Shown piece after piece: positions 8,608-63,865 of a stretch of 64,000 nt of DNA; position 1 is the first letter of the stretch; each line of letters opens with the position of its first letter. The notes under the pieces were generated by a model. The model had not been told where the DNA came from. It made no database searches and saw only the letters and a program-made list of their open reading frames with translations. The position numbers were made by a program, and so were the translations under genes. Origin of the DNA: a virus (taxonomy: Duplodnaviria > Caudoviricetes); IMG/VR virus record IMGVR_UViG_3300002220_000322, positions 38,860 to 102,859 of that record. One strand, 5' to 3'.

Positions 8608-8608
8608 A

Positions 8609-36609: not shown

Positions 36610-36619
36610 AATTATTGTT

Positions 36620-41364: not shown

Positions 41365-41406
41365 ATTGGAATAAAAAAAGGCAGCCCAAGAGAGCTACCT
41401 TATTAG

Positions 41407-41812: not shown

Positions 41813-41831
41813 ATAATCATTTTTAAATTAG

Positions 41832-42220
41832 TAGCAAGGACGGGAGTTGAACCCGCATCGAGTGGCTTCACATTTGTGTATATTTCTATACTCTGTGGAC
41901 TATATCATCACCCTCGTCTTTACGTTAGGGTGGTGAGTACTTAATCTGGTTATTAAGAAGACTTTACTTCTCCAGTAGTCTCTACACCTTCTGAAAGTGT
42001 ACTTTCAGCTTGGCTCGGTATTGTCATATCAATTGACTTAGATTCTACCGAATTCACTCACTTTTTCAATAAATCTTTCGATTTAAAGTCACTATTTTCA
42101 AAAATAAATAATTCTGGATTGTGTTCTTCTGCGTGACAGTTAAAACATAATAAATACATTCCTTTTTCATTTACTTTTTTTCTAATGAGACCCTCCAGTT
42201 ACCATTACTAGCACCTTGCA
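41832..42220 (-). tRNA. tRNA-Met(CAU), initiator-like, split by a group I intron
   Basis: Exons 42220-42185 and 41868-41832; acceptor TGCAAGG/CCTTGCT with a 1:72 mismatch; imperfect anticodon stem. Confidence 0.75.
41869..42184 (-). mobile_element. group I intron immediately 3' of the CAU anticodon, with an HNH remnant
   Basis: Core GTGTAGAGACTA / GATATAGTCC, terminal G, and fragment LLCFNCHAEEH. Confidence 0.82.
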
Positions 42221-42224
42221 TGTG

Positions 42225-42296
42225 AGCAGATAAAGAGATTCGAACTCTCAACTTTTAGTTTGGAAAACTAACACTCTACCATTGAGCTATATCTGC
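42225..42296 (-). tRNA. tRNA-Gly(UCC)
   Basis: Cloverleaf. Confidence 0.9.
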
Positions 42297-42300
42297 ATAG

Positions 42301-42373
42301 TCGGGGTAGGAGGACTCAAACCTCCGATCTCTGCATCCCAAATGCAGCGCGATATCAACTTCGCTATACCCCG
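42301..42373 (-). tRNA. tRNA-Pro(UGG)
   Basis: Cloverleaf. Confidence 0.88.
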
Positions 42374-42604
42374 GTGTATTCTCATTAATAGCTCTTCCTT
42401 TTCTATTAACAGAATACTGAATTATTTCATTTATGGTTCCCTAAAGAAATTAATTAAACAAAAGAAGAGAAGTATATAAGACTGCCCCCTCCACAGCCCC
42501 TCTATATATTTTAAATGCCCGCAGGTAAGCATTGGAAGAATTAAACTACTAAAAGTTTTTGAAAGTTAGTTACAATAGCCTCTGCCCTTGTTTTTAATTC
42601 CATG

Positions 42605-42678
42605 TGTCCTTGCCAGGAGTCGAACCTGGCCCGCTACCTTAAAAGGGTAGAGCAATACAACCGGTTTGCTACAAGGAC
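42605..42678 (-). tRNA. tRNA-Lys(UUU)
   Basis: Cloverleaf. Confidence 0.85.
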
Positions 42679-42759
42679 GGCCTAAGTGTGGTACTCTAGC
42701 CAACTGAGTTAAGGGAGAATGTGTAAAGTATAAATGTACTTTAAATTATTACATAATTG

Positions 42760-42831
42760 CGGTCTATAAGGGAATCGAACCCTTCTCATCTGATAGACAG
42801 TCAGATATTCTAGCCACTAAACTAATAGACC
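42760..42831 (-). tRNA. tRNA-Asp(GUC)
   Basis: Cloverleaf. Confidence 0.9.
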
Positions 42832-42835
42832 ATAG

Positions 42836-42908
42836 TAGGTTCACTCAGACTTGAACTGAGATTACATGAGTATCAGTCATGCTTCCTAACCAATTAGAAG
42901 ATGAACCT
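42836..42908 (-). tRNA. tRNA-Ile(GAU)
   Basis: Cloverleaf. Confidence 0.88.
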
Positions 42909-43117
42909 AAGTAAAATAAATATCCTTCCGTACACGGCTACTTTTAATAGCGGCTTCTGTACTCCCTTCTTTCTTATTAAATTTCTAATCCTTATAAGTT
43001 ATAGGTTTCCTCCGAGTATATCCTCTGTGATATTGCATGCATTACAGTAATATACGAAAGGTTAGAACTTTTTGTGAAGGCTAGCTACTCCTTCCTTGGA
43101 TATTTATTTTTAAAATG

Positions 43118-43200
43118 TGGGAGGTGATGGAGTCGAACCACCCGAGTCGTTAAACACTTGATTTACAGTCAAGCCCGCTACCCCTACGGTATAACCTCCC
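43118..43200 (-). tRNA. tRNA-Tyr(GUA)
   Basis: Cloverleaf with long variable arm. Confidence 0.9.
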
Positions 43201-43212
43201 AATTTATAATTG

Positions 43213-43296
43213 CGGAAAGTAAAGGATTCGAACCTTTGGACCATTAAGATCACATCCTTAGCAGGGATGTACAATAAACCTCTCTGACAACTTTCC
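43213..43296 (-). tRNA. tRNA-Ser(GCU)
   Basis: Cloverleaf with long variable arm and G73. Confidence 0.9.
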
Positions 43297-43300
43297 TTAG

Positions 43301-43375
43301 TGGAGACATAAGGAATTGAACCTTAGCCTTGGGATTTTCAGTCCCACGTACAACAACCACCTATACGATATCTCC
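43301..43375 (-). tRNA. tRNA-Phe(GAA)
   Basis: Cloverleaf. Confidence 0.85.
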
Positions 43376-43391
43376 TTTTCATATTAGGTTG

Positions 43392-43465
43392 AGCGCATAG
43401 CTGGATTCGAACCAGCGATATGCAAATTTGCAGTTTGCCGGCTTAGACCTCTCACCCATACGCGC
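43392..43465 (-). tRNA. tRNA-Cys(GCA)
   Basis: Cloverleaf with U73. Confidence 0.9.
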
Positions 43466-43469
43466 ATTA

Positions 43470-43673
43470 CTACCATTGGTTATGTAAATAGTCTAAATAA
43501 TCTTCAGCAGCGGTTTGTTCGGGATCTGGTATTCTTTTACTTATAAATATTTTTAAAGTTTTACCATCATCCTGATAATCAAAATGAACATTATTATCTT
43601 CTTTCCAATTTACATAACTTCTGCCTTCTTCGTCAATAACTTCTACTCTAGTTACTTTTTTTAAATTTTTCAT
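43470..43673 (-). CDS. hypothetical protein
   Basis: ORF VTRVEVIDEEGRSYV..QDDGKTLKIF. Confidence 0.6.
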   Translation of the reverse strand: MKNLKKVTRVEVIDEEGRSYVNWKEDNNVHFDYQDDGKTLKIFISKRIPDPEQTAAEDYLDYLHNQW

Positions 43674-43850
43674 GTTTTTCTATTAAAAATTAGTTGAACA
43701 ATACTTTCTTTGATTTCCAGTTAATTCTTTTACTAAATTTCACAAAATAATTTTTCTCTTATACCTTTAAATATTAGGTTAATAATATCTAAAAGTAAGA
43801 AAAATTTTTGTAAAGTTATATAAAAGTAATAAAAATGTGGAAATCAGTTT

Positions 43851-43930
43851 TGGTGGGCCTGGAGGGTCTCGAACCCACCTGTCACCAACTACGCTTTCTA
43901 TTGGTTATGAGCCAAAGGCGATACAGGCCC
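43851..43930 (-). ncRNA. non-canonical tRNA-like RNA, CAU anticodon, no D-arm at the normal position
   Basis: 7-bp acceptor plus ACCA, T arm and anticodon arm. Confidence 0.65.
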
Positions 43931-43989
43931 AAAATTTCATAATCTTTACGTTTAACCAGTTAAACTACAGGCTAATTAAAAGTTTTTAG

Positions 43990-44061
43990 CGGTTCCATCA
44001 GGGTATGATCCTGAAACAAATGATTAACAGTCATCCGTGATACCAATTTCACCATAGAACC
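43990..44061 (-). tRNA. tRNA-Asn(GUU)
   Basis: Cloverleaf with atypical T-loop. Confidence 0.8.
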
Positions 44062-44067
44062 AATTAG

Positions 44068-44139
44068 AGCCTTTGACAGGACTTGAACCCGCAACCTGCT
44101 GATTACAAAACAGCTGTACTACCATTGTACTACAAAGGC
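44068..44139 (-). tRNA. tRNA-Thr(UGU)
   Basis: Cloverleaf. Confidence 0.9.
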
Positions 44140-44270
44140 GTTTATTTCAACTAATATACTTTATCGGGAATCCCACATTTAGCTTCATACACCATTAGAG
44201 GATTACTTAGTGTATACCCTTACGAAATCTTCCTCCAGACTTGTATATCTACGTTTTGTAGTTGAAATTG

Positions 44271-44341
44271 TGGATTAGGGGGACTTAAACCTACGACCTT
44301 GAGATTATAAAACTCATGAGCTGACTAGCTATTCCACCCGC
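44271..44341 (-). pseudogene. degenerate tRNA (UAU loop)
   Basis: D, anticodon and T-like arms present but the acceptor is unpaired. Confidence 0.5.
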
Positions 44342-44346
44342 AATAC

Positions 44347-44574
44347 TTATTTATTTTGTTCATATATATTAATCTTGTGGACTAATAATATATTGTGTGG
44401 ATTTTTCCCCACATGAAATTTTAAACAACTACGACATTTATACGCTATTTGCTTATGAATTGTGCGAGAATCCTCATTCATTCTCTTTGCCCATGCTACT
44501 GCATCTTCAAAGGTTTTAAACGTCTTTTTAGCCTTGCCAAAAGCCGTTATACATTGTCTTAATGGTTTAGACAT
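44347..44574 (-). CDS. small Zn-ribbon-like protein
   Basis: C..K..F..A and AYKCRSCLKFHVG. Confidence 0.6.
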   Translation of the reverse strand: MSKPLRQCITAFGKAKKTFKTFEDAVAWAKRMNEDSRTIHKQIAYKCRSCLKFHVGKNPHNILLVHKINIYEQNK

Positions 44575-44825
44575 AAATTAAGAAATTTTATTTTAAGTTT
44601 TTCTAAAAGAGACTCGTCTTGCAATCCTCTATCTATTAATTTTTTTGCTGATGTTTCAGTAATTTGATAAAACCATCATCTCCATGTCCTGCTATACAGC
44701 TATTGTTATAATAAGAAAAACAGTCAAAACAACTTACAGAACAATCACTAAAAAATTTCATAATAATAGTTTTTAAAATTTATGGGAAGGGTAGGAATCG
44801 AACCTACGTTTTGTAATTAAAATTG

Positions 44826-44899
44826 TGGACCCAGTGGGACTCAAACCCACGATCTCTGGAGTGCAAATCCAGTGCTTTATTCATCTAAGCTATAGGCCC
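44826..44899 (-). tRNA. tRNA-Ala(UGC)
   Basis: Cloverleaf with G3:U70. Confidence 0.88.
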
Positions 44900-44905
44900 A
44901 AATAG

Positions 44906-44977
44906 TATCCCGTGCGAGAGTCGAACTCGCGCCTCCTGATAGAAAGTCAGACGTGTTAACCACTTCACTAACGGGAC
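44906..44977 (-). tRNA. tRNA-Glu(UUC)
   Basis: Cloverleaf. Confidence 0.9.
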
Positions 44978-45268
44978 CTATTTTCTTTTGGACTTTTTAA
45001 TCCATTTTTGTAAACTAGCAGAATACCTATCTTGAGTATTATACCAAAAATAATCTTGTCCTCTATAATTTTCATAATCAATAGTATAATCACTATAATC
45101 ATAATCATTAATTATAGTTTTGGGGTTTGGAATATCTAAATTTTCAAAATCTTTACAACTTCTTATAACATTTTTTATATTCGATCTGATCCTTCTCCAA
45201 TATAAAGAACTTTTTTTAACATTCCTAGGTCTATCTTTAATATAACCTTTTTTCTTACTTCTGCTCAT
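44978..45268 (-). CDS. basic hypothetical protein
   Basis: ORF MSRSKKK... Confidence 0.6.
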   Translation of the reverse strand: MSRSKKKGYIKDRPRNVKKSSLYWRRIRSNIKNVIRSCKDFENLDIPNPKTIINDYDYSDYTIDYENYRGQDYFWYNTQDRYSASLQKWIKKSKRK

Positions 45269-45483
45269 AATACAAACTACTCCTCAATAATTTCTAAACT
45301 TCTAGGAAATACATCTAACTGTATTTCATTAGTAAACTTTACTCCAACAGCTCCCATCATTCCCCATTTTTCAGGGTCACAGGTAATACCTTCAATTCCA
45401 ACTACTAAGCCTTCAGCATAGTCAGATAAATCTGTAGTTAATCTTACTTTTGTTCCATATCTAATAAGTATTAAAATATTTAG

Positions 45484-45564
45484 TATCAAGGGAGGGACTC
45501 GAACCCTCACGCTTTTAGGCACTAGTTCCTAAAACTAGCGTGGCTACCATTACACCACCTTGAC
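45484..45564 (-). tRNA. tRNA-Leu(UAG)
   Basis: Cloverleaf with long variable arm. Confidence 0.9.
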
Positions 45565-49029: not shown

Positions 49030-49596
49030 TTATTTTAATAGGTATTTATCATCCCAAGAAGATTGGTTTTTATCCATATCCACCCAAGGCCAAGTTTCCT
49101 TAGCTTTTTTGATATCTTTATCAGCATAATAAAGAAACCAAAGAATCTGTTCCCAATATTTATAAGGATTTCCTAAAGGCGCCTTTAATGTAATTACCAG
49201 CTGTAAACCAAAAAAGAATATATAGAACATAGGAGGAAACTCAAATCTAGGAGAGGAAAATTTATCTTTCCATCCTAAAGGCACAGATCCAATTTTAAAA
49301 GGCCAACCAACCTGTAAAAAATAATAATTATTAAATACTTTAAAAATATAATTTTTGGATCTTCTAACTATCGGAAAATTAGAAAATGTATTTTCTTCTT
49401 TTTTCCAAGGAAATCTTTTATTCTTTTCTTCTCTTTCCTCTAAAGATAATAATTTAAGCTTTCTTATTTTTATAATTGTAGATACAAACCCTATAGGATA
49501 AAAATAAGGAATGCCATATTTTAAAGGCCCAAAATAAATACTTAATCTAGGAAGTTTAAAATATTTAAAAGCAGGAGCATATTTTTTAATTTTCAT
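49030..49596 (-). CDS. hypothetical protein
   Basis: ORF. Confidence 0.6.
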   Translation of the reverse strand: MKIKKYAPAFKYFKLPRLSIYFGPLKYGIPYFYPIGFVSTIIKIRKLKLLSLEEREEKNKRFPWKKEENTFSNFPIVRRSKNYIFKVFNNYYFLQVGWPFKIGSVPLGWKDKFSSPRFEFPPMFYIFFFGLQLVITLKAPLGNPYKYWEQILWFLYYADKDIKKAKETWPWVDMDKNQSSWDDKYLLK

Positions 49597-50746
49597 ATTC
49601 CAATAAAAAATCAGGATTTATAACCTTAAAAGAAAGTATTTTTTTACCGTTTTCTATACAACGTATAACTACCCCTTCTCTATGTATTTTATTATTTATA
49701 GTTGATTTGCCTTTACTAAATTCAACTAATTCTTGTAATGTAGAACCTAATTTGTACAGAGGAACGGTTGTTTTATTAGATTCCCATGCAACTAAAGGAA
49801 CAGGAATTAATCCATTATCTTCACAAAACTTTTTCATTTCCTCGTAATTGTAATGATAATTCCTCTCGTGATCTATAACATTAAATACCCAAAACCTAGG
49901 CTCTTTAATATCATACTTATTACCTTGAACTTTAGTATCTCCCTGCTCACCTTGAATAGTAAGAGTTGGATTTTCTCTAAGTATTTGCTCAATATTATAC
50001 TTTTTAGCTATCTTCCAGTAGAGAGAGTTCTTATCATTGTTAGTTAAGTTCCTACTACATACTACAAATTTATACTCTTTGATAGGAATTAATTTACCTA
50101 ACCATCCATTAAACTTAGGAACCCTCTTGCCTGTAAACGTAACTGATTGGAAGTCAACCTTCTCTGTTACATAAACTTCTTTATCTTTAAACTGTTCAAG
50201 TACTTTAGGTATATTCTGAATTCTCTCTTCATCTGTCTTGCTTACCCAATAAGGAAATCCTTTTTTCTGTTTTCTTGAAATAAACAACCTCCTAAACCAA
50301 GAATATCTCATCATAAATTTCTTAAGTTTATTCTTTTCATTAGAAAGTTTTCTTTCTTGTTGAGATATTTCTTCTCTTTCAGATGGAGTTAAGTACTTAG
50401 TAACCCCTAATATTTCAGTTACATCAGTTCCTTTGGCCTCTCCCTTGATTACATATTCTTTAGGAAGGATAGATAGAGGTAAAATAAGTCCTTGGGAGAT
50501 TTGATTTTTTAACTTAATAGTCCTTATTCTAAATTTTCTATTTCTTAGAAATTCAAATTCTGGTAATTCAGGAACAACACTGTCTATTTCAAAATAGACT
50601 ACCAAGTCTCCAACAGAAACTTCTCCTTTCTTTACTACACACTCCCAACCTAAATCTTTCATTAAAGCCACCTCAATTTTATCTGCTCCAGGTATAGGCT
50701 TTAATTCAGATATAATTTGTAATGTTGCTAATTTTCTTTCTGACAT
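49586..50746 (-). CDS. Rnl2/DRB0094-family RNA ligase
   Basis: RKLA..IPGADKIE, YFEIDS, ISQGL, KTDEERIQN, TEK.D, CSRN, QGE, REGVV and SFKVI. Confidence 0.88.
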   Translation of the reverse strand: MSERKLATLQIISELKPIPGADKIEVALMKDLGWECVVKKGEVSVGDLVVYFEIDSVVPELPEFEFLRNRKFRIRTIKLKNQISQGLILPLSILPKEYVIKGEAKGTDVTEILGVTKYLTPSEREEISQQERKLSNEKNKLKKFMMRYSWFRRLFISRKQKKGFPYWVSKTDEERIQNIPKVLEQFKDKEVYVTEKVDFQSVTFTGKRVPKFNGWLGKLIPIKEYKFVVCSRNLTNNDKNSLYWKIAKKYNIEQILRENPTLTIQGEQGDTKVQGNKYDIKEPRFWVFNVIDHERNYHYNYEEMKKFCEDNGLIPVPLVAWESNKTTVPLYKLGSTLQELVEFSKGKSTINNKIHREGVVIRCIENGKKILSFKVINPDFLLEYEN

Positions 50747-51015
50747 TTATATTCATTTAAATTATCCCAAAGTAATTCATCACTATTAGTATCATATAAT
50801 TCTACAGTATCATATAATTCTATAGTGGCTTCATCGTTTATAGGAGGCATAAGCTCCTCTGTTTTATAAAGTGTATCCCAATGGAGATATATGTCCTCTC
50901 TATTATATAAACCATCAATCCCTTCCTTTTTAAGGATATCAATAATTTGTTCTTTGGCTATATCTTCATTTAATGTTATTCTTTTCCAAATAGATGTTTT
51001 TATATCTATATACAT
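50728..51015 (-). CDS. hypothetical protein
   Basis: ORF. Confidence 0.5.
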   Translation of the reverse strand: MYIDIKTSIWKRITLNEDIAKEQIIDILKKEGIDGLYNREDIYLHWDTLYKTEELMPPINDEATIELYDTVELYDTNSDELLWDNLNEYKCQKEN

Positions 51016-51079
51016 ATTATAAGTTAATTTTTAAATTTTTATATTTTTTCAAAAGTATTTTATAAATAACTTCATTTTT

Positions 51080-52066
51080 TTATTTAATCAAATTTAAAAA
51101 TTCCTCATTATTTAATTTAAATCCAGAAGCTCCTTTATGGCCACCTCCTCCATATTGTTTAGCAATCTGACTACAGTCAACTTTACCGTTATCATTGTAT
51201 AAGCTGAAGTTCCACATTCCATTTGCATAATGAAAGCAAGCACATCCATCATACCCATCTTTGTGATAATCTATACCAAAATTGATAGGATTGAATCTTT
51301 CTTTGTTGATACAAATGAAGTTTAATGTACTCGGAACATTATTTAAATTCTGACCCTTATCTTCTCTTACAAATGCTTCATGGCATCTAAATTGAATACC
51401 AAACCCATTCTTATAAGTTTGTTTAGCTTCTGTGCAGAGATATTGATAAATAGCTTTTCCTTGCTCTAATATTGAGCCAACTATTGCCTGAGCATTAAGA
51501 AACAAATATTCGCTTTCGTTTGTATTAATGCATTGAATAAGATAACTGTAAGCCTCCTCATAATTACTAATACGCTGCCTTGCTCCATATTGAAACTCAA
51601 GAACTTTCTGTTCTTCAGCAGTTCCTTTGTGGCCAAAGCAATCATATCTGCCAAGTAATCTTACTATTTCTGGCATTGATTCGTGGGAAAAGAAATATAT
51701 CCAAGTAAGTTCACAAGCTGAAAAATTAGTATTACGAATACCCTTACTATCATCATAAGATAATATTATAGAGGAATGTTTACTTTCATTGATAGCCGAT
51801 ATATGATGATCTAACCAAATAAAATCTTTATCTTCATAAAGTTTGATCATTTCTTCCTTAGGGAAACTAATATCACACATTATCACTCTATCATATTCTG
51901 ATAGATCTGGAATAGGTTGTCCATAGTTGTAACCTATAAAATTAATTGAGTCGTTTTGTGGAATAGTATTAAATCCGTTATTCTCTAAGTTAAACCAATG
52001 TTTTACTATTGCTGCCGACATCCAACCATCAAGGTCTATACTGTGGTATATACAAACTGTTTTCAT
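51080..52066 (-). CDS. DHH/DHHA1 phosphoesterase
   Basis: YH..DLDG..SA, CD, DHH and GGGGH.GASG. Confidence 0.9.
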   Translation of the reverse strand: MKTVCIYHSIDLDGWMSAAIVKHWFNLENNGFNTIPQNDSINFIGYNYGQPIPDLSEYDRVIMCDISFPKEEMIKLYEDKDFIWLDHHISAINESKHSSIILSYDDSKGIRNTNFSACELTWIYFFSHESMPEIVRLLGRYDCFGHKGTAEEQKVLEFQYGARQRISNYEEAYSYLIQCINTNESEYLFLNAQAIVGSILEQGKAIYQYLCTEAKQTYKNGFGIQFRCHEAFVREDKGQNLNNVPSTLNFICINKERFNPINFGIDYHKDGYDGCACFHYANGMWNFSLYNDNGKVDCSQIAKQYGGGGHKGASGFKLNNEEFLNLIK

Positions 52067-52225
52067 TGTTCCATTTTTTTATTCTTAAATTTTTCATATT
52101 TTTCTAAGGGTATTCTATAAATAATACCAGACATTCTAGAAAAACTACAAGAGCAGCTCTTTTGTGAAGTTTAGCAAACTCAATCATAGTATCGGTTATT
52201 GACCTACTTATTGCACCTCATAATC

Positions 52226-52504
52226 TTATTCTTTAATTTCTTTTAATTCTTTACTGTGTTTCAACGATCCTAATAAAACATTCTGAGCAGTACCCATTAT
52301 AATAGCTAAAGCTCTTTGTTCATATGTCATATCATTCAGATAAATAGGTTCTCCTTCTACTTCCTTATATCCTACACTATCCATTTTATATTCCCTATAT
52401 ACTCTTGTAATATAAGAGAATGTTCTTGGACTTGGTGGATAGTTATGAAGTACAATCTTATCTGTAGATTCCCAGATTATATTTTTATCTATCTTAAATT
52501 TCAT
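52226..52504 (-). CDS. hypothetical protein
   Basis: ORF. Confidence 0.5.
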   Translation of the reverse strand: MKFKIDKNIIWESTDKIVLHNYPPSPRTFSYITRVYREYKMDSVGYKEVEGEPIYLNDMTYEQRALAIIMGTAQNVLLGSLKHSKELKEIKE

Positions 52505-52548
52505 AATGAATTTTTTAAATCATACATAGCCAAGAATTGTAGTACAGT

Positions 52549-52791
52549 TTATGAAGACCGTGCATCTTCGGAAGTTTCATAGGATTGTTCTATTTCAACA
52601 TCCGAGATAGTCGTATAATTATCGCCCAAATCATTCATGAACAATTTTTTAGCTTCTAATTTTGCTTTTGTTTCTGCTATCTTTTTTGAATTAGCATTAA
52701 TTATCATTGAATAGGTTTCGGCACCAACATATATTTCTTCATCCATGTTATCCGAATAAGAAACAGAACATTCTACATAGTAAATTTTCAT
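52549..52791 (-). CDS. hypothetical protein
   Basis: ORF. Confidence 0.5.
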   Translation of the reverse strand: MKIYYVECSVSYSDNMDEEIYVGAETYSMIINANSKKIAETKAKLEAKKLFMNDLGDNYTTISDVEIEQSYETSEDARSS

Positions 52792-52961
52792 GATATGTGA
52801 TGGTTATGTGATTGTGCCCGCATTCCTGCACTGCATATATACCAAGACCGTTATCATTCAGTTTGCGATTACACCACCGCATTTTCTGCAAACAAGCGTA
52901 GCTGATGAAAATATCTTAGTTTGCTTATTCCATTTACAATTGCAAACCGTTCGCTTCGCAA

Positions 52962-53092
52962 TGCTAACATTTTGTTTATTGCGTTGCTGCTCTGTGATTT
53001 TTGATTCTTTTTTCATTTTTTGTAATTATTTAATAATTTGACAATTTTGTTCTATTAATCGCCAAACTGGGCATAGCTGCGGCACGTTAGCA
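52962..53092 (+). repeat. attC-like element E1 (arms poorly matched)
   Basis: TGCTAAC...GTTAGCA, 131 bp. Confidence 0.6.
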
Positions 53093-53097
53093 AATAT

Positions 53098-53322
53098 TTA
53101 ACCGTGGCATGTTGGACACGACATTTGCCCACAATCGCAACCGTTACTTTGCCAATTAGATGCAGAAATTATTGCATAGTATACCTTGTCTATAATTAAC
53201 TGCTTATCTTCTGGTTTAAGTTCAATTCCATTCTTTTTTAACCCTTCAATGATTTCTTTACTTGTGCTTGTCAAGTGTGTCCAATTTGTTTCCATATACC
53301 GTCCGACAGTTAAAAGTTTCAA
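53098..53322 (-). CDS. small Cys-tail cassette protein
   Basis: CDCGQMSCPTCH; ends next to E1. Confidence 0.55.
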   Translation of the reverse strand: MKLLTVGRYMETNWTHLTSTSKEIIEGLKKNGIELKPEDKQLIIDKVYYAIISASNWQSNGCDCGQMSCPTCHG

Positions 53323-53504
53323 CTTTCATAAATTAGGGTTTTAATATTGAGTAACCTCAATTTTAGCATGATGATTTTGCACTTCCATCCACGTTTTTAC
53401 CTTTAATTTTTCAACCTCCTTTAGTACCACTTTTCCATTCCTAGATTTTTCTAAATCAATTTCCCAACCATCTGGAATAATAATTACTTTATCCATAAAT
53501 TAAA

Positions 53505-53738
53505 TTATTTTTTAAGTTTTTTTAAACTAGAATTAGGTAATATTTCTTTTTTACTCCTTAAATGTTTAAGAATAGAAATAGTGCTGTGAAATTGTTCTTG
53601 AAGTAATTTAGCTCTATTGGTAAATTTCTCTGTAGGAATTTCTCCAGGACCATATACTTTTCTTTCACCAATAAATTCCAGAGCTTGTTGAAAAGCTTTA
53701 ACTTCTTTTTTATTATACTTGTTAGTGTATTGTTTCAT
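53505..53738 (-). CDS. hypothetical protein
   Basis: ORF. Confidence 0.5.
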   Translation of the reverse strand: MKQYTNKYNKKEVKAFQQALEFIGERKVYGPGEIPTEKFTNRAKLLQEQFHSTISILKHLRSKKEILPNSSLKKLKK

Positions 53739-53756
53739 TTTATTAATTATTAATTA

Positions 53757-54120
53757 TTATTCTTCAATTTCTTTTGTTTCAAATCCTTTAATTATTTTAG
53801 AAGATTTTAAATAAATTTGATTTAATAACTCTTCTAAAGTATCTCCATAGCAGTATAAAATTCTACTTATAGAAGGATTAACTGCATAAAATACAACCTC
53901 TCCTTCTTCATCAAATTCATAGGAATTTCTTTCTTTTACTAAAACCTCTGCTAAAAATCCAAGTTTATTATTATCAATAAGATCAAAAATTATTCCATCA
54001 ATTCTTTCAAAATATTTTGGACCTTTAAAAGACTTAATATCAGGAAATAATTCTCTAATATCTTCTAAAGTGTCAATGTCCTTTAGAAAACTCTCCAATT
54101 CATGAGTTTCAGTAGAAGTA
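53757..54120 (-). pseudogene. 5'-truncated paralog of 56238-56711
   Basis: Shared THELE..IIFD.IDN.KLGFLAEVLVKER..VNP.IS.ILYCYGDTLE; the N-terminus is replaced by element E2. Confidence 0.75.
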
Positions 54121-54248
54121 ACTACCAGCTATATTTAATTGCTGGCTTTGTGAGTTATTCAAGTTCTGTTCGTTGTTCATAATTAATCGTAATTTGATAG
54201 TTTAGTATTTCAAAATCAGTAACTAAACATAGCTGCGAAACATTAGCA
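54117..54248 (+). repeat. attC-like element E2 (damaged ends)
   Basis: Arms CAGCTATATTTAATTGCTG / CAGTAACTAAACATAGCTG, ~132 bp. Confidence 0.7.
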
Positions 54249-54255
54249 GAAATGC

Positions 54256-54465
54256 CTAAACAGACACCTTGCCAGTTGCTTCACAATTTTCACATTGCAC
54301 CTGAATTGGGCATTCACCACAACAATCGCCATCGGGGTGTGGGTGTGGCGAGTGGTCAGCATACCAGCCATACCCATCACATTTCGGGCAAGGCACTTCT
54401 GCTAACACGGGTTTTGTGCCATTGGCGGTTTTGTCTTTCAATTCAACTTTTTTGCTCATACTCAA
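54256..54465 (-). CDS. DnaJ-type Zn-finger mini-protein (cassette ORF)
   Basis: CPKCDGYG...CENCEATG; starts inside E3. Confidence 0.65.
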   Translation of the reverse strand: MSMSKKVELKDKTANGTKPVLAEVPCPKCDGYGWYADHSPHPHPDGDCCGECPIQVQCENCEATGKVSV

Positions 54466-54529
54466 TATTTGTTTTTAATTTAACATTTGTGGTTTAAGTC
54501 GCCAACGGACACATAGCCACGAGTTAGCA
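54400..54529 (+). repeat. attC-like element E3
   Basis: TGCTAAC, arms TGTGCCATTGGCG / CGCCAACGGACACA, GTTAGCA; 130 bp. Confidence 0.75.
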
Positions 54530-54745
54530 GCAATTGTCAATCAACTTCTGCAACCCTACTGAATAATCAGACGGCATTGGATACCCACTAAATTTCGCAT
54601 TACAGTATTCAGAACAAGCACCATTACCATGTTCAATGGTTTCTTTGTCCATCTCTTTTTCGCATATCAAACAACTGCTGCTAACAGCAGGTATATTCAA
54701 TTGCGGTTTCTGTGATTTATCCAAGTTTTGTTCTTTATTGTCCAT
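54524..54745 (-). CDS. Cys-rich mini-protein (cassette ORF)
   Basis: CLIC...CSEYC; starts inside E4. Confidence 0.65.
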   Translation of the reverse strand: MDNKEQNLDKSQKPQLNIPAVSSSCLICEKEMDKETIEHGNGACSEYCNAKFSGYPMPSDYSVGLQKLIDNCC

Positions 54746-54810
54746 TTTATTTGAATTTGAAGTTTTGTAATTTTAAGTCCGCAACTAAATATACCTGCGA
54801 ACCGTTATAG
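54679..54810 (+). repeat. attC-like element E4
   Basis: TGCTAAC, arms GCAGGTATATTCAATTGCGG / CCGCAACTAAATATACCTGC, GTTATAG; 132 bp. Confidence 0.8.
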
Positions 54811-54811
54811 G

Positions 54812-55012
54812 TTATTTAAAAGCGACAAAGCCGACAGGAAAGCCGAAGCCAGACGATTTTAAACATTTATAACCTTTTGATTCTGCATGTTTGACAAGAG
54901 AATCAATTTGAGAGGACGATGGATTATCATCTTTCCAAAAAACGACATCTATTTTTTTTGGATTTGACTTTGATTTTTTATCAAATTTTTCTTTTTCAGA
55001 TTTTAAATTCAT
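54812..55012 (-). CDS. cassette ORF, hypothetical
   Basis: Lies between E4 and E5. Confidence 0.55.
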   Translation of the reverse strand: MNLKSEKEKFDKKSKSNPKKIDVVFWKDDNPSSSQIDSLVKHAESKGYKCLKSSGFGFPVGFVAFK

Positions 55013-55050
55013 AATTATTAGATATTTAGATTAATAAAATTGAAAATAAC

Positions 55051-55182
55051 CTATAACACAGTATAGCGGTCAATAAGGGTATTAGTGGTGTTCGGAGCTT
55101 CGCAACCCACAACAACTTTTTTTGCAACCCGACAGCGACACGCCCCGCATCCCTTACATGCCGCTATATCCGTCCGTTGTGC
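55051..55182 (+). repeat. attC-like element E5
   Basis: CTATAAC, arms TATAGCGG..TAAGGG / CCCTTA..CCGCTATA, GTTGTGC; 132 bp. Confidence 0.75.
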
Positions 55183-55200
55183 GTAATGCTATTTATTATT

Positions 55201-55416
55201 TTATTCAAATTGAGAATTATGAACTTTAATAATAGCATCAATAAACTGATCTACGGTATAGAAAGTGTTTACAATTCCAAAAGATCCATAATCAACAAAA
55301 AATCGCTGATTATCAGCATCGTATTCTATCTTATCTATTCCAGAAGATATATTTACATAATTTCGCAAGAACTTATGAAGCAATGTTTTTAACTCTTGAA
55401 TCTCTTTATCATCCAT
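55201..55416 (-). CDS. hypothetical protein
   Basis: ORF abutting E5. Confidence 0.55.
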   Translation of the reverse strand: MDDKEIQELKTLLHKFLRNYVNISSGIDKIEYDADNQRFFVDYGSFGIVNTFYTVDQFIDAIIKVHNSQFE

Positions 55417-55421
55417 AATCT

Positions 55422-56237
55422 TTAATTTTTTATAAATAACTTACTCTGCTCGATTGCTAAAGTAAGGGATAATTCTATTATTTTAAAGACAGGATCGGTT
55501 CTTTTAGTATTAATTACTTTATCACTTTTTAACCACTCTTCCCACTCTTTAATTGTTTTTTGTATACAGCCATATCTTATATGAGAATCGGTTAATGTTA
55601 AGTTATACCCAAAGTTTAAAGTAAATACTTTTCTTGTTGCTTTAGCTTCTCCAGCTATTTCTGCCTCACCGGATACTTCTGCCTCTCCAAATACCTCTGC
55701 ACTACCAGATACAAAAGCACTTTCATATACTAGTGCATATTCATATACTTTTGCATTATAGGCTATGTGAGCATTGCCGTATATTCTAGCGTTTCCATAT
55801 ACTTGAGCATTTCCATATACTTCAGCATTTTGAAATATAACAGCTTTATCAAATATTTTAGAAAAACCATATACAACAACATCTCCACTTAATTCCGCAT
55901 TACCAAATACTTCAGAGTTACCATATACTATAACATTTCCTCGTATTATTGCATTGTCATATATTTTAGCTTTATTTAATATGGATGCCTTATCTTGAAC
56001 TACTGCATTACCACATATTACTGCATTACCATATATTGTAGCATTACCGTACACAATAGCCTCATCAAGTATTAAAGCATAATCGGAAAAATTCGATTCT
56101 TTTTCAGCCCATCCTCCTAAATCTCCTTTTTTATAGTCTAAATAATCTTCTTTAAACCTAACTCTGTATATTATAATGTCATAGTATGTTTTTGAAATAT
56201 TTGTTAATTCTATTATTTTACTTGAAAATGTATTCAT
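55422..56237 (-). CDS. hexapeptide-repeat (beta-helix) protein
   Basis: KGDLGGW.E followed by many VYGNA-type repeats. Confidence 0.85.
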   Translation of the reverse strand: MNTFSSKIIELTNISKTYYDIIIYRVRFKEDYLDYKKGDLGGWAEKESNFSDYALILDEAIVYGNATIYGNAVICGNAVVQDKASILNKAKIYDNAIIRGNVIVYGNSEVFGNAELSGDVVVYGFSKIFDKAVIFQNAEVYGNAQVYGNARIYGNAHIAYNAKVYEYALVYESAFVSGSAEVFGEAEVSGEAEIAGEAKATRKVFTLNFGYNLTLTDSHIRYGCIQKTIKEWEEWLKSDKVINTKRTDPVFKIIELSLTLAIEQSKLFIKN

Positions 56238-56711
56238 TTATTCAATGTTATTTAGAAATTTTTTTAAGGATATATATTTTTCTAGCTCTGATTCTTCAAA
56301 ACTTTTAATTATTTCAGAAGATTTTATATAAATTTGGTTTATAAGAGCTTCTAAAGTATCTCCATAGCAATATAAAATCTTGCTTATAGCAGGATTAACT
56401 AAATAAGAGGTAGGCTTTTCTTCCTCATCAAAGTCATAACAATATCTTTCTTTTACTAGGACTTCTGCAAGAAAACCAAGTTTATCATTATCAATAATAT
56501 CAAAAATTATTTCATCAGTTTTCTTCAAAAAATACTCTGAATTTTTAAAAAAATCAATATCAGTAAATACTTCTTTAAGATCTTCCAAATTTTCAATATC
56601 TTCTATCATGGTTTCTAGTTCATGAGTATCACTAGAAGCAGCTATCCAAATAAGATTAGCTATTTCTATATTATTTTCAAAAAAATAATCAAAAATTTCT
56701 TTATTATTCAT
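56238..56711 (-). CDS. hypothetical protein (intact paralog)
   Basis: ORF; see 53757. Confidence 0.65.
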   Translation of the reverse strand: MNNKEIFDYFFENNIEIANLIWIAASSDTHELETMIEDIENLEDLKEVFTDIDFFKNSEYFLKKTDEIIFDIIDNDKLGFLAEVLVKERYCYDFDEEEKPTSYLVNPAISKILYCYGDTLEALINQIYIKSSEIIKSFEESELEKYISLKKFLNNIE

Positions 56712-56714
56712 TTT

Positions 56715-57101
56715 TTAAAGTTTATAAATTTCCCAATCATAAAAGTATTCTGGGGAAAACCCTCTATTATTATATCCTTTAGGATTTTCTAAATTATCAG
56801 TCACTCCTATATCTCCAAACCTGGAAACCATCCAAACTAATAATTTAGTATCTTTAGGACAAGTATGAGTAGAAATATTATTTTCAACAGGATGTATACC
56901 ATTCCAGGTTGTCATAATAAGATCATTTTTATTTTTAGTATATATTTTAAAATTATACCAAAAATCCATATTAGATAAATCTCTAATTTTTTCTGAAGGA
57001 TATTTGATAGAATAAAGATTATCAAAAGAAACTTCATTAAAACAAATTTTATCTCCAGATTTCATTTGTTTAAGTAAGTCAGTAAAATCTTCATTTCTCA
57101 T
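56715..57101 (-). CDS. hypothetical protein
   Basis: ORF with MVSRFGDIGVT. Confidence 0.6.
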   Translation of the reverse strand: MRNEDFTDLLKQMKSGDKICFNEVSFDNLYSIKYPSEKIRDLSNMDFWYNFKIYTKNKNDLIMTTWNGIHPVENNISTHTCPKDTKLLVWMVSRFGDIGVTDNLENPKGYNNRGFSPEYFYDWEIYKL

Positions 57102-57303
57102 TTAATAATTTTTTAGCTTTATTTATATTACAAATTGTTTTAATAAAAATAAGATCAGATACATTAGTCCAAAAAATTTTTTTTGTTCTTCTAGTATATA
57201 ATCTGGCTTTATCTCCCTTAATTTCAGCTAACACAAATCTCATAGCCTTATGACTTTGCCAAGTGGTATGATAATTACATCCGATGATTATAGGATTATC
57301 CAT
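57091..57303 (-). CDS. hypothetical protein
   Basis: Start overlaps the rtcB stop. Confidence 0.55.
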   Translation of the reverse strand: MDNPIIIGCNYHTTWQSHKAMRFVLAEIKGDKARLYTRRTKKIFWTNVSDLIFIKTICNINKAKKLLNEK

Positions 57304-58487
57304 TAGTGGGCTTTATAATTATACAAAGGTTTAATAGTATCAATGACAATGACTGTATCTTGAATAAGAGATACAATTTCCTCCATAGACTTATAAGCTA
57401 AAGGAGCTTCATCTAAAGTACTTTCTAATACAGAAGTGCTGTAAATACCCTCCATAGAATTTTTAAATTCTTCTAAATTTAAATTTTCTCTAGCTGAAGT
57501 TCTGCTCATCAATCTTCCAGCCCCATGAGGAGCAGAATAATTCCAGTTTTTATTTCCCTTACCAATACATATAAGAGAACCATCTCTCATATTAATTGGA
57601 ATTAAAAGTAATTCTGATTCTTCGGCAGATACTGCTCCTTTTCTAAGAATCATTCTTCTAAAATCAATGTAATTATGAATAGTTTCAAATCTACTAGATT
57701 CTTCCCATTGCATCTCTTCAATAATAATTTTAGCTATAGTTTCTCTATTAAAAGAAGCAAATTTCTGAACAATAGACATATCATTCATATAATTATCAAA
57801 ATCCTTTCCTGTAAGAAAAGCAAATTCTTTATCAGTTGATGAAATTTTAATTTTCTTCAATTCATCATTAATTTCTTTTTGCCTTCCTTCAGATTTAAGT
57901 TTATCAATGAGATTTTTAATCTCCTCATTTGATTTACTAGAATTTTTAAAAGCTAAATTTTGATAATATTGACATACTTCACTTCCCAACTTTCTACTTC
58001 CAGAATGAATAATAAGAAATATATCTTCTGTAGTTTTACTTTTCCCTACTTCAATAAAATGGTTACCTCCACCTAAAGTACCTATAGAAAGAGAGGCTCT
58101 ACTTGCATTTATATGATTTGTACATTTAAGAGAGTTTAAGTCAAAAATATCTTTACTTTTAGTATGTACTTCTTTTCCACTTGGGATTTTATTATTTATA
58201 ATATTATCTAATTTAGAAAAATCTATATCTCGATTTTTTAACTTAATAGTTAACATACCACATCCTATATCTACTCCAACTAAGTTAGGAGTAACTTTAT
58301 CTTTTATAGTCATGGTAGTACCTATAACACATCCTTTGCCAGCATGAGCATCCGGCATAATTCTCACAGTAGAATTTTGATATGCTTCACAATTAATAAG
58401 TTTTTTTATTTGATTAAAAGCTTCTTCTTCAAAGGTTTTTGCAAATATAACTGTTTCTGTTCTTAAATTATTTTTTATAATCTGCAT
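57303..58487 (-). CDS. rtcB: RtcB RNA ligase
   Basis: MPDAHAG, GVDIGCG, GGGNHF, HSGSR, HN, RKGA, HGAGR and DEAP.AYK. Confidence 0.95.
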   Translation of the reverse strand: MQIIKNNLRTETVIFAKTFEEEAFNQIKKLINCEAYQNSTVRIMPDAHAGKGCVIGTTMTIKDKVTPNLVGVDIGCGMLTIKLKNRDIDFSKLDNIINNKIPSGKEVHTKSKDIFDLNSLKCTNHINASRASLSIGTLGGGNHFIEVGKSKTTEDIFLIIHSGSRKLGSEVCQYYQNLAFKNSSKSNEEIKNLIDKLKSEGRQKEINDELKKIKISSTDKEFAFLTGKDFDNYMNDMSIVQKFASFNRETIAKIIIEEMQWEESSRFETIHNYIDFRRMILRKGAVSAEESELLLIPINMRDGSLICIGKGNKNWNYSAPHGAGRLMSRTSARENLNLEEFKNSMEGIYSTSVLESTLDEAPLAYKSMEEIVSLIQDTVIVIDTIKPLYNYKAH

Positions 58488-62305: not shown

Positions 62306-62325
62306 TTTTAAAAGTTTAAAGTTTG

Positions 62326-62391
62326 TTGGAATAGAGAGGATCGAACTCTCGAAAGAAATAGCTACTTTCTAACTTGCCTATCAATATTCCA
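62326..62391 (-). ncRNA. 66-nt D-armless tRNA-like RNA
   Basis: TGGAATA/TATTCCA acceptor, AGAAA/TTTCT stem with 7-nt loop, GAGAG-TTCGATC-CTCTC T arm. Confidence 0.6.
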
Positions 62392-62547
62392 GAGATGAGA
62401 GTTCTCACCAGTAGTTTTAGTCTCAAAACTTACAAAATAATACCCCCTGTAAAGGACAGAGGCGTACCTACTTTTTTTATTAAAAAATCAAAAATCAACC
62501 TACCTTTAACGCTGTAGGTGCCACGAAATAGTCTCTCAAACTATTTG

Positions 62548-62618
62548 AACTCTGGGAAAGAATCGAACTTTCATCTCCTAATTACCAATTAGGGCTCTAG
62601 CCATTAAGCTACCAGAGT
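62548..62618 (-). tRNA. tRNA-Thr(GGU)
   Basis: Cloverleaf; CCTAA-TT GGT AA-TTAGG. Confidence 0.8.
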
Positions 62619-62623
62619 TGTTT

Positions 62624-62806
62624 TCATATGTTTCCTGCCTTTCTTACCTTTTTAGGATTTTTAATTTTAACAGTGGAAAGAATTTTAGTTACTCCCACAA
62701 TGTGGGCTTTTAATGTATTACGTGCATTTTCAGCAGCAACATCACAAATAGTAGTACTTCGAGTTTCTCCTTGTACCGTTTCGTATGTAATTAAATATTG
62801 ATTCAT
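62624..62806 (-). CDS. hypothetical protein
   Basis: ORF. Confidence 0.5.
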   Translation of the reverse strand: MNQYLITYETVQGETRSTTICDVAAENARNTLKAHIVGVTKILSTVKIKNPKKVRKAGNI

Positions 62807-63411
62807 TGTAAACTTTGTTTAAGTTTATTGATATGATATTTAAGGTATCTTTTCTTATCATCATATAATCCTTTTTTAAACAAAATGCTTTTGTTCTTAA
62901 AAAACATTAATGTAAATACAGATTCATGATGAATAAGGTAGAACATCAGAAGAAAAGTATCTTCTTTTTTAAGGGGCAGAATATCAAGTATATCAGTTAA
63001 TCCAGGAAGTTCAGATGAATCTTCTTTAAAAAGACTAACATAATTATACAAAAGTTCCATTCCTTCAATGATAGTATATGTGTCAATCAACTTATCTAGA
63101 AATTCAATTCTAGAAGTAGTGTCTCTTATATCCCACCAATAATTATAATTTATTTTCATCAAGTAATGTTCTAAAGAAGGAAAATTGGATAACCAACTAG
63201 AGTCAATCTTGTATATAAATAAACCAATAAAGTATCTTAAATTCTTAGGACGTCTTGCTTCTAGAAACTCTTTAAAGGAAATTAAATCAAAAGGATAAAT
63301 ATGGGAAATTTTTGCAGAAATTGTACATAGTCCCATAAGATCTCCTATATTAATACTTTTGTAATATTCTTCCTTTATAGCGATTAAGATTTCTTTTTTA
63401 TTCTTTATCAT
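62803..63411 (-). CDS. hypothetical protein
   Basis: ORF. Confidence 0.55.
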   Translation of the reverse strand: MIKNKKEILIAIKEEYYKSINIGDLMGLCTISAKISHIYPFDLISFKEFLEARRPKNLRYFIGLFIYKIDSSWLSNFPSLEHYLMKINYNYWWDIRDTTSRIEFLDKLIDTYTIIEGMELLYNYVSLFKEDSSELPGLTDILDILPLKKEDTFLLMFYLIHHESVFTLMFFKNKSILFKKGLYDDKKRYLKYHINKLKQSLQ

Positions 63412-63444
63412 ATCTCTTCAAAAGTTGTTATTGGTTTGTATATC

Positions 63445-63762
63445 TTATAACCTTTTATGGAATTTTTTAACATAAAGATCATGATTCTGAATTTTAGTTT
63501 CCAATACTTTTGCAAAACTTCCATAAAAAATAGGATCTTTACTTTTAAAAGTATAGCCTTGTTTTTTTCCTATAAGGACTATATTTCCACTTTGTATAAG
63601 AGAGTCCAATACAAAGACTGGATAAGAACATTTATGCTCTTTAAGAGAAGTAATAAATTCTTTTTTCGTAAAGCTATTAATAGCTTTTTTTGAATATCCA
63701 TTTCTTATCTTTGATAAGATTGCTGATACATTTTTTGCTCTTTCTTCTGTCTTTTCTTTCAT
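63445..63762 (-). CDS. basic hypothetical protein
   Basis: ORF. Confidence 0.55.
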   Translation of the reverse strand: MKEKTEERAKNVSAILSKIRNGYSKKAINSFTKKEFITSLKEHKCSYPVFVLDSLIQSGNIVLIGKKQGYTFKSKDPIFYGSFAKVLETKIQNHDLYVKKFHKRL

Positions 63763-63793
63763 CTGTATTTTTTTTATTAAAGTTAAATTTTTG

Positions 63794-63865
63794 ATGCCCT
63801 GATAGGATTCGAACCTATACTATCTCCTTCAAAGGGACACGTGCTAACCATTACACCACAGGGCA
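63794..63865 (-). tRNA. tRNA-Gln(UUG)
   Basis: Cloverleaf with U1:A72. Confidence 0.85.

Follow-up and report, generated by a model that had tools for sequence, protein, structure and literature searches.

Positions 52815-55179 of a 64,000-nt stretch of tailed-phage DNA (hereafter the window) hold a run of hairpins alternating with small open reading frames, which raises the question of whether a phage can carry integron-like gene cassettes and, if so, which enzyme moves them. The source record comprises 102,859 nt (102.9 kb; 59% complete, CheckV), and the crAss-like label it received from the letters alone fits its DNA polymerase, for which the best matches are crAss-like phages at about 43% identity. 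Among the neighbours of the array are genes for an RNA ligase, RtcB and a DHH protein. An earlier sequence-only reading had noted that no integrase lies in the window, which was borne out and extends to the whole record: neither contains a tyrosine or serine recombinase or a Y1 transposase, and a tblastn search across the record recovered no wrecked recombinase gene, even at E<10. The array is therefore an orphan. The preferred reading, with a probability of about 0.75, is that it consists of mobile cassettes from an integron-like system common in Bacteroidota chromosomes and phages.

Searches turned up no close relative of the phage that could show local gain or loss of cassettes. Among 50,697 cultured-phage records, blastn with a hairpin returned no match and a search with 8 kb of the region returned RtcB as the sole match. 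Relatives retrieved through the DHH gene (viral and metagenome scans) and through a beta-solenoid gene were only 53-68% identical, and two further matches at ~90% were short fragments without the region upstream of DHH. A hairpin upstream of DHH was seen in none of them, and they are too distant for mapping a local insertion.

Layout of the array

The array is read on the minus strand as five cassettes followed by a terminal half site. Every unit comprises a hairpin of ~125 nt (AAC...GTTA), a small ORF that takes its ATG from the loop, and an end box complementary to the box following the hairpin. Three cassettes are intact, one is interrupted and one has a decayed hairpin. In the direction of the genes, the parts are:

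55054-55179, minus: hairpin E5, 126 nt, the recombination site of cassette 1, with AAC, stem and GTTA ends
54805-55176, minus: cassette 1, 372 nt, E5 plus a 66-aa ORF (54812-55012) with its own ATG; end boxes perfect (14/14)
54682-54807, minus: hairpin E4, 126 nt, covariance model 121 bits
54524-54804, minus: cassette 2, 281 nt, E4 plus a 73-aa Cys-rich ORF (54524-54745)
54403-54526, minus: hairpin E3, 124 nt, covariance model 87 bits
54243-54523, minus: cassette 3, 281 nt, E3 plus a 67-aa ORF (54256-54459)
54119-54245, minus: hairpin E2 of cassette 4, 127 nt, covariance model 89 bits
54109-54180, minus: orphan leader ORF of E2, 23 codons, stopping just beyond GTTA
53171-54118, minus: AT-rich, backbone-like DNA interrupting cassette 4, about 950 nt, GC 0.265
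53757-54098, 53505-53738 and 53341-53496, minus: ORFs inside the interruption
53087-53170, minus: cassette tail past the interruption, closing with an end box and TAA; partner box absent (run of 4 in the pairing comparison)
52965-53089, minus: hairpin E1, 125 nt, covariance model 44 bits, most stem pairs broken
52851-53086, minus: cassette 5, 236 nt, decayed E1 plus a 52-aa Cys-rich ORF (52858-53016); end boxes matching at 9/12
52815-52853, minus: array-terminal half site, TAAC then a 5'-arm-like stretch with a TATAT core

The sequence-only reading had described five imperfect palindromes of 130-132 nt, bounded by TAAC and GTT and alternating with tiny ORFs in a GC-rich island. Five elements are indeed present, with an altered core in E2 (ATT), but they measure 124-127 nt, and the stem is retained in four and largely lost in E1. 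The ORFs exist on the minus strand, three with their start codon inside a hairpin loop. The E2-E1 interval is occupied largely by the AT-rich, backbone-like DNA. The island is real (GC 0.38 in cassette parts compared to 0.27-0.30 in the flanks). A half site placed at about 52820-52856 was confirmed, reading in the sense orientation as ..GATAAC followed by the 5' arm (52853->52815). This site resembles the one that separates the last cassette from the recombinase gene in two related loci (L011 and L021); in the window it is followed by an 80-aa ORF (52549-52791), not a recombinase.

With the covariance model, four hairpins scored 121, 89, 87 and 44 bits on the minus strand versus 12-20 bits on the plus strand. 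E5 scored only 11.8 bits; its loop is GC-rich, unrelated to the other loops and without an ATG, and it is included because its ends and stem are as in the others and because cassette 1 has perfect 14-nt end boxes. The ORF of cassette 2 starts in the loop and takes its stop codon from the TAA of the terminal TAAC. Cassette 3 ends in a core mutated to TAAT, and on the plus strand the right core of E2 reads ATT instead of GTT. No cross-pairing of flanks was found for the E2-E1 interval, part of which (53758-53983) is 80% identical to 56275-56500 in the repeat search.

The cargo of the window consists of four small, mostly Cys-rich proteins without assigned function. Pfam searches gave no match for the small cassette ORFs, that of cassette 1 included, and atlas look-ups gave weak zinc-finger leads; for cassette 3, whose protein has two CxxCxGxG-like zinc-finger motifs, this was a DnaJ-type zinc finger, as a lead only. 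No relatives of E5, cassettes 1 and 5 or the cassette tail occurred among 100+ loci. Wear is visible in the lost stem of E1, one AAT core and the interruption of cassette 4, and since three of the five units are decayed, the window array is suggested to be mostly a fossil now.

A hairpin family with paired cassette ends

An nhmmer profile of E1-E4 recovered 175 copies in 77 viral or MAG loci, and a covariance model (R1; E<=1e-5) matched 43/121 and 67/101 sampled genomes from two Bacteroidota orders (35-66%). These covariance-model searches overturned the idea of a virus-specific family, which had come from an exact-pattern scan (8 genome versus 62 viral matches). Many MAG contigs terminate at these hairpins, a point that matters for assembly.

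Across 91 distinct hairpins, 90.5% of cells pair, compared to 69.5% in shuffles (0/500 reaching 90.5%) and 30-46% in slid controls, with double changes in 19 of the 20 stem pairs. Wobbles are biased (G.T 177 versus A.C 38), mainly owing to two conserved wobble columns, one of which holds G.T in 81/91 hairpins. The ends are near-invariant (TAAC-G and T-GTTA), and the element has the make-up of an attC-type site, in which an imperfect hairpin with an inner stem and an unpaired spacer lies between AAC...GTT cores. The structural case rests on this covariation, as single-strand folding energies alone were unconvincing (z +0.3 to -4.0). Covariation of this kind is compatible with a folded DNA strand or an RNA hairpin alike, and the hairpin is part of the mRNA.

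Hairpin and gene are closely fitted to one another. The ORF starts in the loop in 34/44 cassettes, the coding sequence for the ATG and about 20 N-terminal residues being spread over the loop and the 3' arm, and the stop lies <=15 nt from the cassette end in 38/44, being the TAA of TAAC in 18/44. Leader and body as separately exchangeable modules were ruled out: the reading phase at GTTA varies by cassette, and the two always travel together. Where cargo could be identified in related cassettes it was mainly anti-restriction (DNA methylases, Mom, Lar).

The sequence-only reading also held that the outer cores pair across each ORF, and the three repeats it quoted were recovered independently by repeat search as I13, I14 and I15 (15, 15 and 14 nt), I13 belonging to cassette 3 and I15 to cassette 1. 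In 41 short cassettes from other loci, 9.29 of 11 flank positions match across the body, as opposed to 4.18/11 for random pairs and 4.13/11 for the two flanks of one element, so the pairing is not due to chance. The partner of an outer box is thus at the other end of the same cassette and is not the adjacent box in the array. Between cassette 2 and its copy in another phage (L005), the end boxes carry a compensatory change.

Discrete cassettes and a linked recombinase

Comparison of loci delimited the cassette as a unit. Twenty locus pairs share a hairpin and its downstream body, starting exactly at AAC, and none shares an upstream body plus hairpin. The shared DNA runs, exact to the nucleotide, from AAC to TAAC, and both ends break at AAC, even where the junction is with non-repeat DNA; the comparison places the exchange within the core triplet, to a resolution of these three nucleotides. 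Cassette 2 of the window recurs as exactly its 281 nt, with unrelated flanks, in the unrelated 172-kb phage L005, and one pair of arrays differs as X-Y versus X-Z-Y by the clean insertion or deletion of a 340-nt cassette. Identical cassettes between different neighbours, cut exactly at AAC, are discrete units.

Recombinase genes accompany arrays in 15 loci and 5 bacterial chromosomes, in each case at the downstream end. Within the 15 loci, all 40 hairpins precede the homolog and share its strand. The array of a complete phage (G005) leads into a 277-aa recombinase gene (57526-58359), and another of roughly 37 kb (G002) ends about 2 kb before a 289-aa one (115703-116572). For the five chromosomal arrays, the best homolog is 0.8-3 kb past the downstream end, on the opposite strand in 4/5, unlike in the phages. 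Of the arrays with sufficient downstream sequence, about half or more have no recombinase nearby, among them that of a complete 172-kb phage. The linked enzyme is a short Xer-like tyrosine recombinase whose best family is XerA-like, and the closest solved structures are 4a8e and 5hxy (Xer/dif, archaeal XerA). Against TIGR02249 the linked recombinases score 155-164 bits, below the cut-off of 265, aligning in two stretches that skip model positions 181-238; the IntI-specific segment, thought necessary for handling folded attC sites, is missing. No IntI was found beside any array examined. As the candidate enzyme, this recombinase is tied to the arrays by gene position only. The integron-like cassette reading first made from the letters is supported on both counts on which it depended, namely variation among relatives bounded at the AAC/GTT core and an association of the repeats with a recombinase.

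On the preferred reading, a cassette on the gene (minus) strand begins at the C of the AAC core and continues through a 5-nt unpaired spacer, a covarying stem of roughly 20 bp and an A-rich loop of about 70 nt with the start codon; after the stem come a short spacer, GTTA, the gene body, a box complementary to the post-GTTA box, and TAA. Movement would occur by site-specific recombination within AAC, and in the excised circle the two end boxes would meet and lengthen the hairpin, giving an R-box/spacer/L-box site that resembles a folded attC. The short Xer-like tyrosine recombinase from the downstream end of related arrays would be the enzyme. As the window record has no recombinase gene, any movement in this phage would depend on an enzyme supplied by its host or by a co-infecting element, and recombination in trans is plausible because the system is so common in Bacteroidota genomes.

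A broader proposal, to which we give somewhat better than even odds, is a second, IntI-independent lineage of integron-type capture common to Bacteroidota and their phages, in which a plain Xer-like recombinase acts on folded, translated single-strand hairpins ahead of genes and phages, including crAss-like ones, draw on a common and largely counter-defence pool even without a recombinase of their own.

Competing explanations and known systems

The cassettes could instead be classical ones, a CALIN that came from a bacterial integron and is served by a true IntI. AAC/GTT cores, an imperfect hairpin and box pairing across the cassette are the attC signature, and in Polaribacter phage P12002L R1 finds related hairpins among its methyltransferase genes. 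A CALIN with two methyltransferases was described in that phage and one attC was recombined by IntI1 (Qi et al., PMC9892861); the R1 hits may coincide with the published site. Yet complete integrons are reported to be almost absent from Bacteroidetes (PMC9024848) while the hairpin occurs in 35-66% of sampled genomes, the arrays examined have no IntI beside them and their recombinases fall short on TIGR02249, and a hairpin that precedes the gene and carries its ATG is the reverse of the classical arrangement, making this origin highly improbable. Just as improbable is the reshuffling of regulatory repeats by homologous recombination, without a dedicated enzyme, after the manner of T4-type PeSL cassettes. 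A repeat of about 125 nt, 80-90% conserved between copies, ahead of genes and including the start codon, would suit such a process, and PeSL-flanked ORFs form circles too (PMC2839356, PMC4122927), but breakpoints would then scatter over the repeat, whereas they fall at AAC on both ends, also against non-repeat DNA. Nor does it account for the 20 versus 0 asymmetry in the side that carries shared DNA, for a specific recombinase at a fixed position, or for the covarying, cassette-specific end boxes, which homologous recombination does not need.

Hairpin and end boxes might also be RNA structures for translation control, processing or stabilisation, with the cassette pattern a by-product of gene duplication. 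Structure favoured on the mRNA-sense strand, conserved G.U pairs, an ATG in an A-rich loop and the flanking RNA ligase, RtcB and DHH genes all suit this account, which leaves unexplained both identical units among unrelated neighbours and phages, cut at one triplet, and the recombinase at array ends; an Rfam search of 50000-58000 gave nothing at E<=1. As a full explanation it is, if anything, less likely still than the preceding two, while an RNA role in addition to the cassette role is possible. The least likely of all is single-strand transposition by an HUH enzyme (IS200/IS605-type Y1) inserting 3' of a TAAC target: units do end in TAAC and sit 3' of TAAC, and the structure is strand-biased, but each unit has one hairpin, not two subterminal ones, the array-end gene is a tyrosine recombinase, and the window record, the sole one searched, has no Y1 transposase (PF01797).

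Integrons are the textbook case of gene capture via recombination of folded DNA; on the current view they need a special IntI domain and hardly occur in Bacteroidota. If the preferred reading is true, the definition of an integron widens to include the same site logic with a simpler enzyme and reversed gene polarity, the real need for the IntI domain is put to the test, and gut or environmental Bacteroidota and their phages, crAss-like ones included, have a cassette pool in common. The cargo of related cassettes is mainly anti-restriction, and the mini-proteins, including the four in the window, are therefore candidates for new counter-defence functions.

Xer/dif and archaeal XerA are the nearest kin of the linked recombinase in sequence and solved structure. 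Xer enzymes act in dimer resolution at a duplex dif site; no role in arrays of hairpin cassettes is known for them. IS200/IS605 elements likewise use strand-specific folded DNA and insert beside a fixed tetranucleotide, whereas in the window system each unit has a single hairpin, an HUH enzyme is missing from the record, and the gene at array ends encodes a tyrosine recombinase. PeSL cassettes (PMC2839356, PMC4122927) similarly place phage ORFs without known function behind a conserved repeat and shuffle them as modules, though by homology, while here the junctions keep to one triplet and the arrays are linked to a dedicated recombinase. No earlier description of a Bacteroidota counterpart of the integron was found, the only published overlap found being the CALINs of virulent phages (Qi et al. 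2023, PMC9892861). In those lytic phages, too, hairpin sites lie among small genes and DNA methyltransferases and no integrase is present, but that study treats the sites as ordinary attC served by bacterial IntI and says nothing of an Xer-like partner, reversed polarity or a spread in Bacteroidota.

Integrons and CALINs are also among the closest known systems. By definition a CALIN has no IntI within 4 kb of its attC sites, of which the IntegronFinder model must call at least two; the window has five hairpins and no integrase, the hairpins having been found by covariance model instead. Common to both are arrays of single-gene cassettes, an imperfect hairpin with AAC/GTT cores, unpaired spacer and inner stem, pairing of each outer box with the opposite end of the same cassette, exchange inside the core triplet, a tyrosine recombinase at one array end beside a simpler terminal site, and the frequency of orphan arrays. 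The window system differs in its short recombinase (277-289 aa), which is Xer/XerA-like and without the IntI-specific segment, in outer boxes of 14-15 nt with a conserved G.T, and in its occurrence in Bacteroidota, where integrons are reported to be nearly absent (PMC9024848). It differs also in arrangement: the hairpin precedes the gene, whereas an integron ORF is promoterless and followed by its attC, and the genes read towards the recombinase, whereas those of integrons read away from attI/intI.

Cassettes are discrete mobile units

Each cassette consists of a hairpin (AAC...GTTA), a small ORF and an end box that pairs with the box directly after the hairpin. Cassettes recur as discrete mobile units in different contexts, with boundaries at AAC. 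When all loci were compared with one another, a hairpin and the body downstream of it were the only shared part in 20 locus pairs, and an upstream body and its hairpin in none; identity started at AAC and stopped at the next TAAC with single-base resolution, including where non-hairpin sequence followed, such that the variation expected at the AAC/GTT core from the sequence-only reading was found. Cassette 2 of the window (54804->54524) and a cassette of locus L005, from a complete 172-kb phage, are 80% identical over exactly 281 nt between unrelated flanks, and G-C in the end boxes of one is A-T in those of the other, a compensatory change. Two further related loci, L020 and L003, have arrays 91-93% identical elsewhere and differ by one 340-nt cassette (X-Z-Y compared to X-Y); the extra cassette (L020 9405-9744) has its own boxes and its own hairpin, which is shorter, of a different type and was missed by the sequence profile.

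Among 41 consecutive hairpins spaced by <500 nt, 9.29 of 11 positions matched between the box following GTTA and the one preceding the next TAAC (random pairs, 4.18; two flanks of one hairpin, 4.13), typically as ten perfect pairs, a conserved G.T and three or four further pairs. The cassettes were compact, with the ORF start in the loop in 34 of 44, the stop codon ≤15 nt from the cassette end in 38 of 44 and the stop codon supplied by the TAA of TAAC in 18 of 44.

Hairpin family, structure and cargo

A scan with an exact 17-base pattern identified 22 viral loci, almost all of which carry full-length copies, and the total rose to 175 copies in 77 sources after two more scans and an iterated profile. 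For 91 distinct copies, the cores TAAC-G and T-GTTA were almost invariant and the stem was paired in 90.5% of cells (shuffles, 69.5%, with 0 of 500 reaching 90.5%; slid partners, 30-46%), with changes on both sides in 19 of the 20 stem pairs, a covariation that cannot separate DNA folding from RNA folding. The encoded leader peptide varied when the hairpin arms varied, thus the conserved feature is the nucleic-acid structure. This structure belongs to the gene-sense strand, since the covariance model (R1) gave the window copies minus-strand scores of 121, 89, 87 and 44 bits, compared with 12-20 bits for the plus strand. One stem column was G.T in 81 of 91 copies, and G.T exceeded A.C overall (177 vs 38), but by much less without the two conserved wobble columns (only 56 vs 37).

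Based on Pfam, the hairpin-led ORFs of all loci (113 distinct) included seven DNA methylases, one Mom, three Lar, three DUF4326 and one PAPS-reductase-like protein, with no family for nearly all others. None of the four window cassette proteins had a Pfam match, and two had weak zinc-finger leads.

The window array and its neighbourhood

The five claimed elements bounded by TAAC...GTT(A) were found (124-127 nt):

52965-53089, plus strand, E1
54119-54245, plus strand, E2 (right core ATT)
54403-54526, plus strand, E3
54682-54807, plus strand, E4
55054-55179, plus strand, E5

The inverted repeats quoted previously were recovered independently by a repeat search (I13, I14 and I15), and the GC-richer island was evident (GC 0.38 in cassette DNA, 0.27-0.30 around the array). 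The array genes are four small ORFs on the minus strand (66, 73, 67 and 52 aa), three of which begin within an element, so that its 3' arm encodes ~20 N-terminal residues. E1-E4 show sequence homology, while E5 has in common with them only the ends and a stem. The half site at the array terminus is like that of the related loci L011 and L021, but an 80-aa ORF comes next.

Most pairs of the E1 stem are broken under the covariance model, and the E2 leader ORF ends after 23 codons. The cassette led by E2 is interrupted, because E2 is separated from the tail at 53087-53170 by ~950 nt of AT-rich DNA that includes a backbone-gene paralog; a 113-aa ORF in this DNA is paralogous to the C-terminal part of a backbone ORF of 157 aa at 56238-56711 (53758-53983 vs 56275-56500, 80% identity). 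Given the mutated core, the lost stem and the interrupted cassette, the array is probably now inactive or nearly so. A lone site at 16718-16830 (minus strand; AAC...GTTG ends, short stem) reached 18 bits with the hairpin model (E 0.27) and is possibly a relic, possibly a chance match.

The array is flanked by three genes that, with the tRNA cluster, form an RNA-repair module:

49586-50746, minus strand, RNA ligase
51080-52066, minus strand, DHH/DHHA1 phosphoesterase
57303-58487, minus strand, RtcB ligase

ARAGORN called a suppressor-type tRNA at 62991-63074 (plus strand), along with 18 further tRNAs at 41406-45564 and 62325-63865; its anticodon, TTA, would read UAA and is not the TCA expected with TGA recoding. 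Late-gene TGA recoding is known in some crAss-like phages. It is suggested here for record positions 1-38859 and window 1-9000 (plus strand), where reading TGA as sense raised the summed length of frames ≥300 aa from 4388 to 12067 aa and that of the longest frame from 862 to 2967 aa, an effect absent from window 9000-64000. The crAss-like label is supported by the DNA polymerase, whose homology falls in a 402-aa stretch amid several ORFs of medium length; a LAGLIDADG-type homing-endonuclease-like ORF was recorded jointly with this region (26045-27103 and 34018-37480, minus strand), and the polymerase gene may be split or invaded. An 18-nt periodic repeat at 55645-56095 (minus strand) arises because ORF 55422-56237 encodes a hexapeptide/YdcK-type beta-solenoid protein.

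Linked recombinases and relation to known systems

The absence of an integrase from the window was borne out over the whole 102,859-nt record (59% complete), with no tyrosine recombinase, Y1 transposase, serine recombinase or recognisable recombinase remnant; many arrays, including that of a complete 172-kb phage, likewise have no recombinase nearby. Elsewhere, a Xer-like recombinase is linked to the arrays by position, and its assignment as the acting enzyme rests on this association. The array of a complete phage (G005, 52487-57352) leads into a 277-aa recombinase gene (57526-58359), and a ~37-kb array (genome record G002) stops ~2 kb short of a 289-aa recombinase gene. Homologs of both occur in 15 loci, among them the isolate Epilithonimonas bovis, and lie downstream of all 40 hairpins on the same strand without exception; in the interval from the last cassette to the recombinase gene, TAAC is followed by a short TATAT-type motif. 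These recombinases are Xer/XerA-like (closest solved structures, XerA) and fall below the cut-off of the integron-integrase model, matching in two pieces with positions 181-238 skipped.

R1 matched 43 of 121 sampled genomes from the order of the Epilithonimonas isolate and 67 of 101 from the order of a Bacteroidales MAG, with many MAGs in these samples. Chromosomal arrays were as long as 18-30 kb. The proposed search of host genomes for the repeat beside a tyrosine recombinase was positive in five bacterial genomes, with the best homolog 0.8-3 kb past the downstream array end, and, as opposed to the same-strand arrangement of the 15 phage and MAG loci, on the opposite strand in four chromosomes, with arrays of 10-30 kb:

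G065:C1 913405-927496
G009:C12 208071-228147
G109:C1 114823-147387
G043:C28 112419-126318

A recombinase supplied in trans to a Bacteroidota phage is plausible. Hairpin copies were often at extreme contig ends in many MAGs (e.g., positions 49-175), suggesting that short-read assemblies of Bacteroidota genomes break at the repeat.

In the proposed mechanism, a Xer-like recombinase would carry out exchange within AAC, with the gene-sense strand as the folded, recombined strand. Excision would yield a circle, where the hairpin, lengthened by the end boxes, would form an R-box/spacer/L-box site resembling folded attC, a pairing that would explain end-box covariation. Each cassette carries its own start codon and may also carry a promoter.

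A full-text literature search found no description of a Xer-linked, hairpin-first system. Only one complete integron is reported in Bacteroidetes by IntegronFinder 2.0 (PMC9024848). CALINs (attC clusters without an integrase) are reported from virulent phages, among them Polaribacter phage P12002L, one site of which was recombined by IntI1 (Qi et al., PMC9892861); R1 finds related hairpins among P12002L methyltransferase genes, which does not imply overlap with the published sites. The PeSL (promoter/stem-loop) cassettes of T4-type phages are functionally analogous and work through homology. Arrays of this type share their site logic with integrons and CALINs; by integrase and gene polarity they fall outside the classical integron family, the geometry of site and enzyme being kept and the genes flipped.
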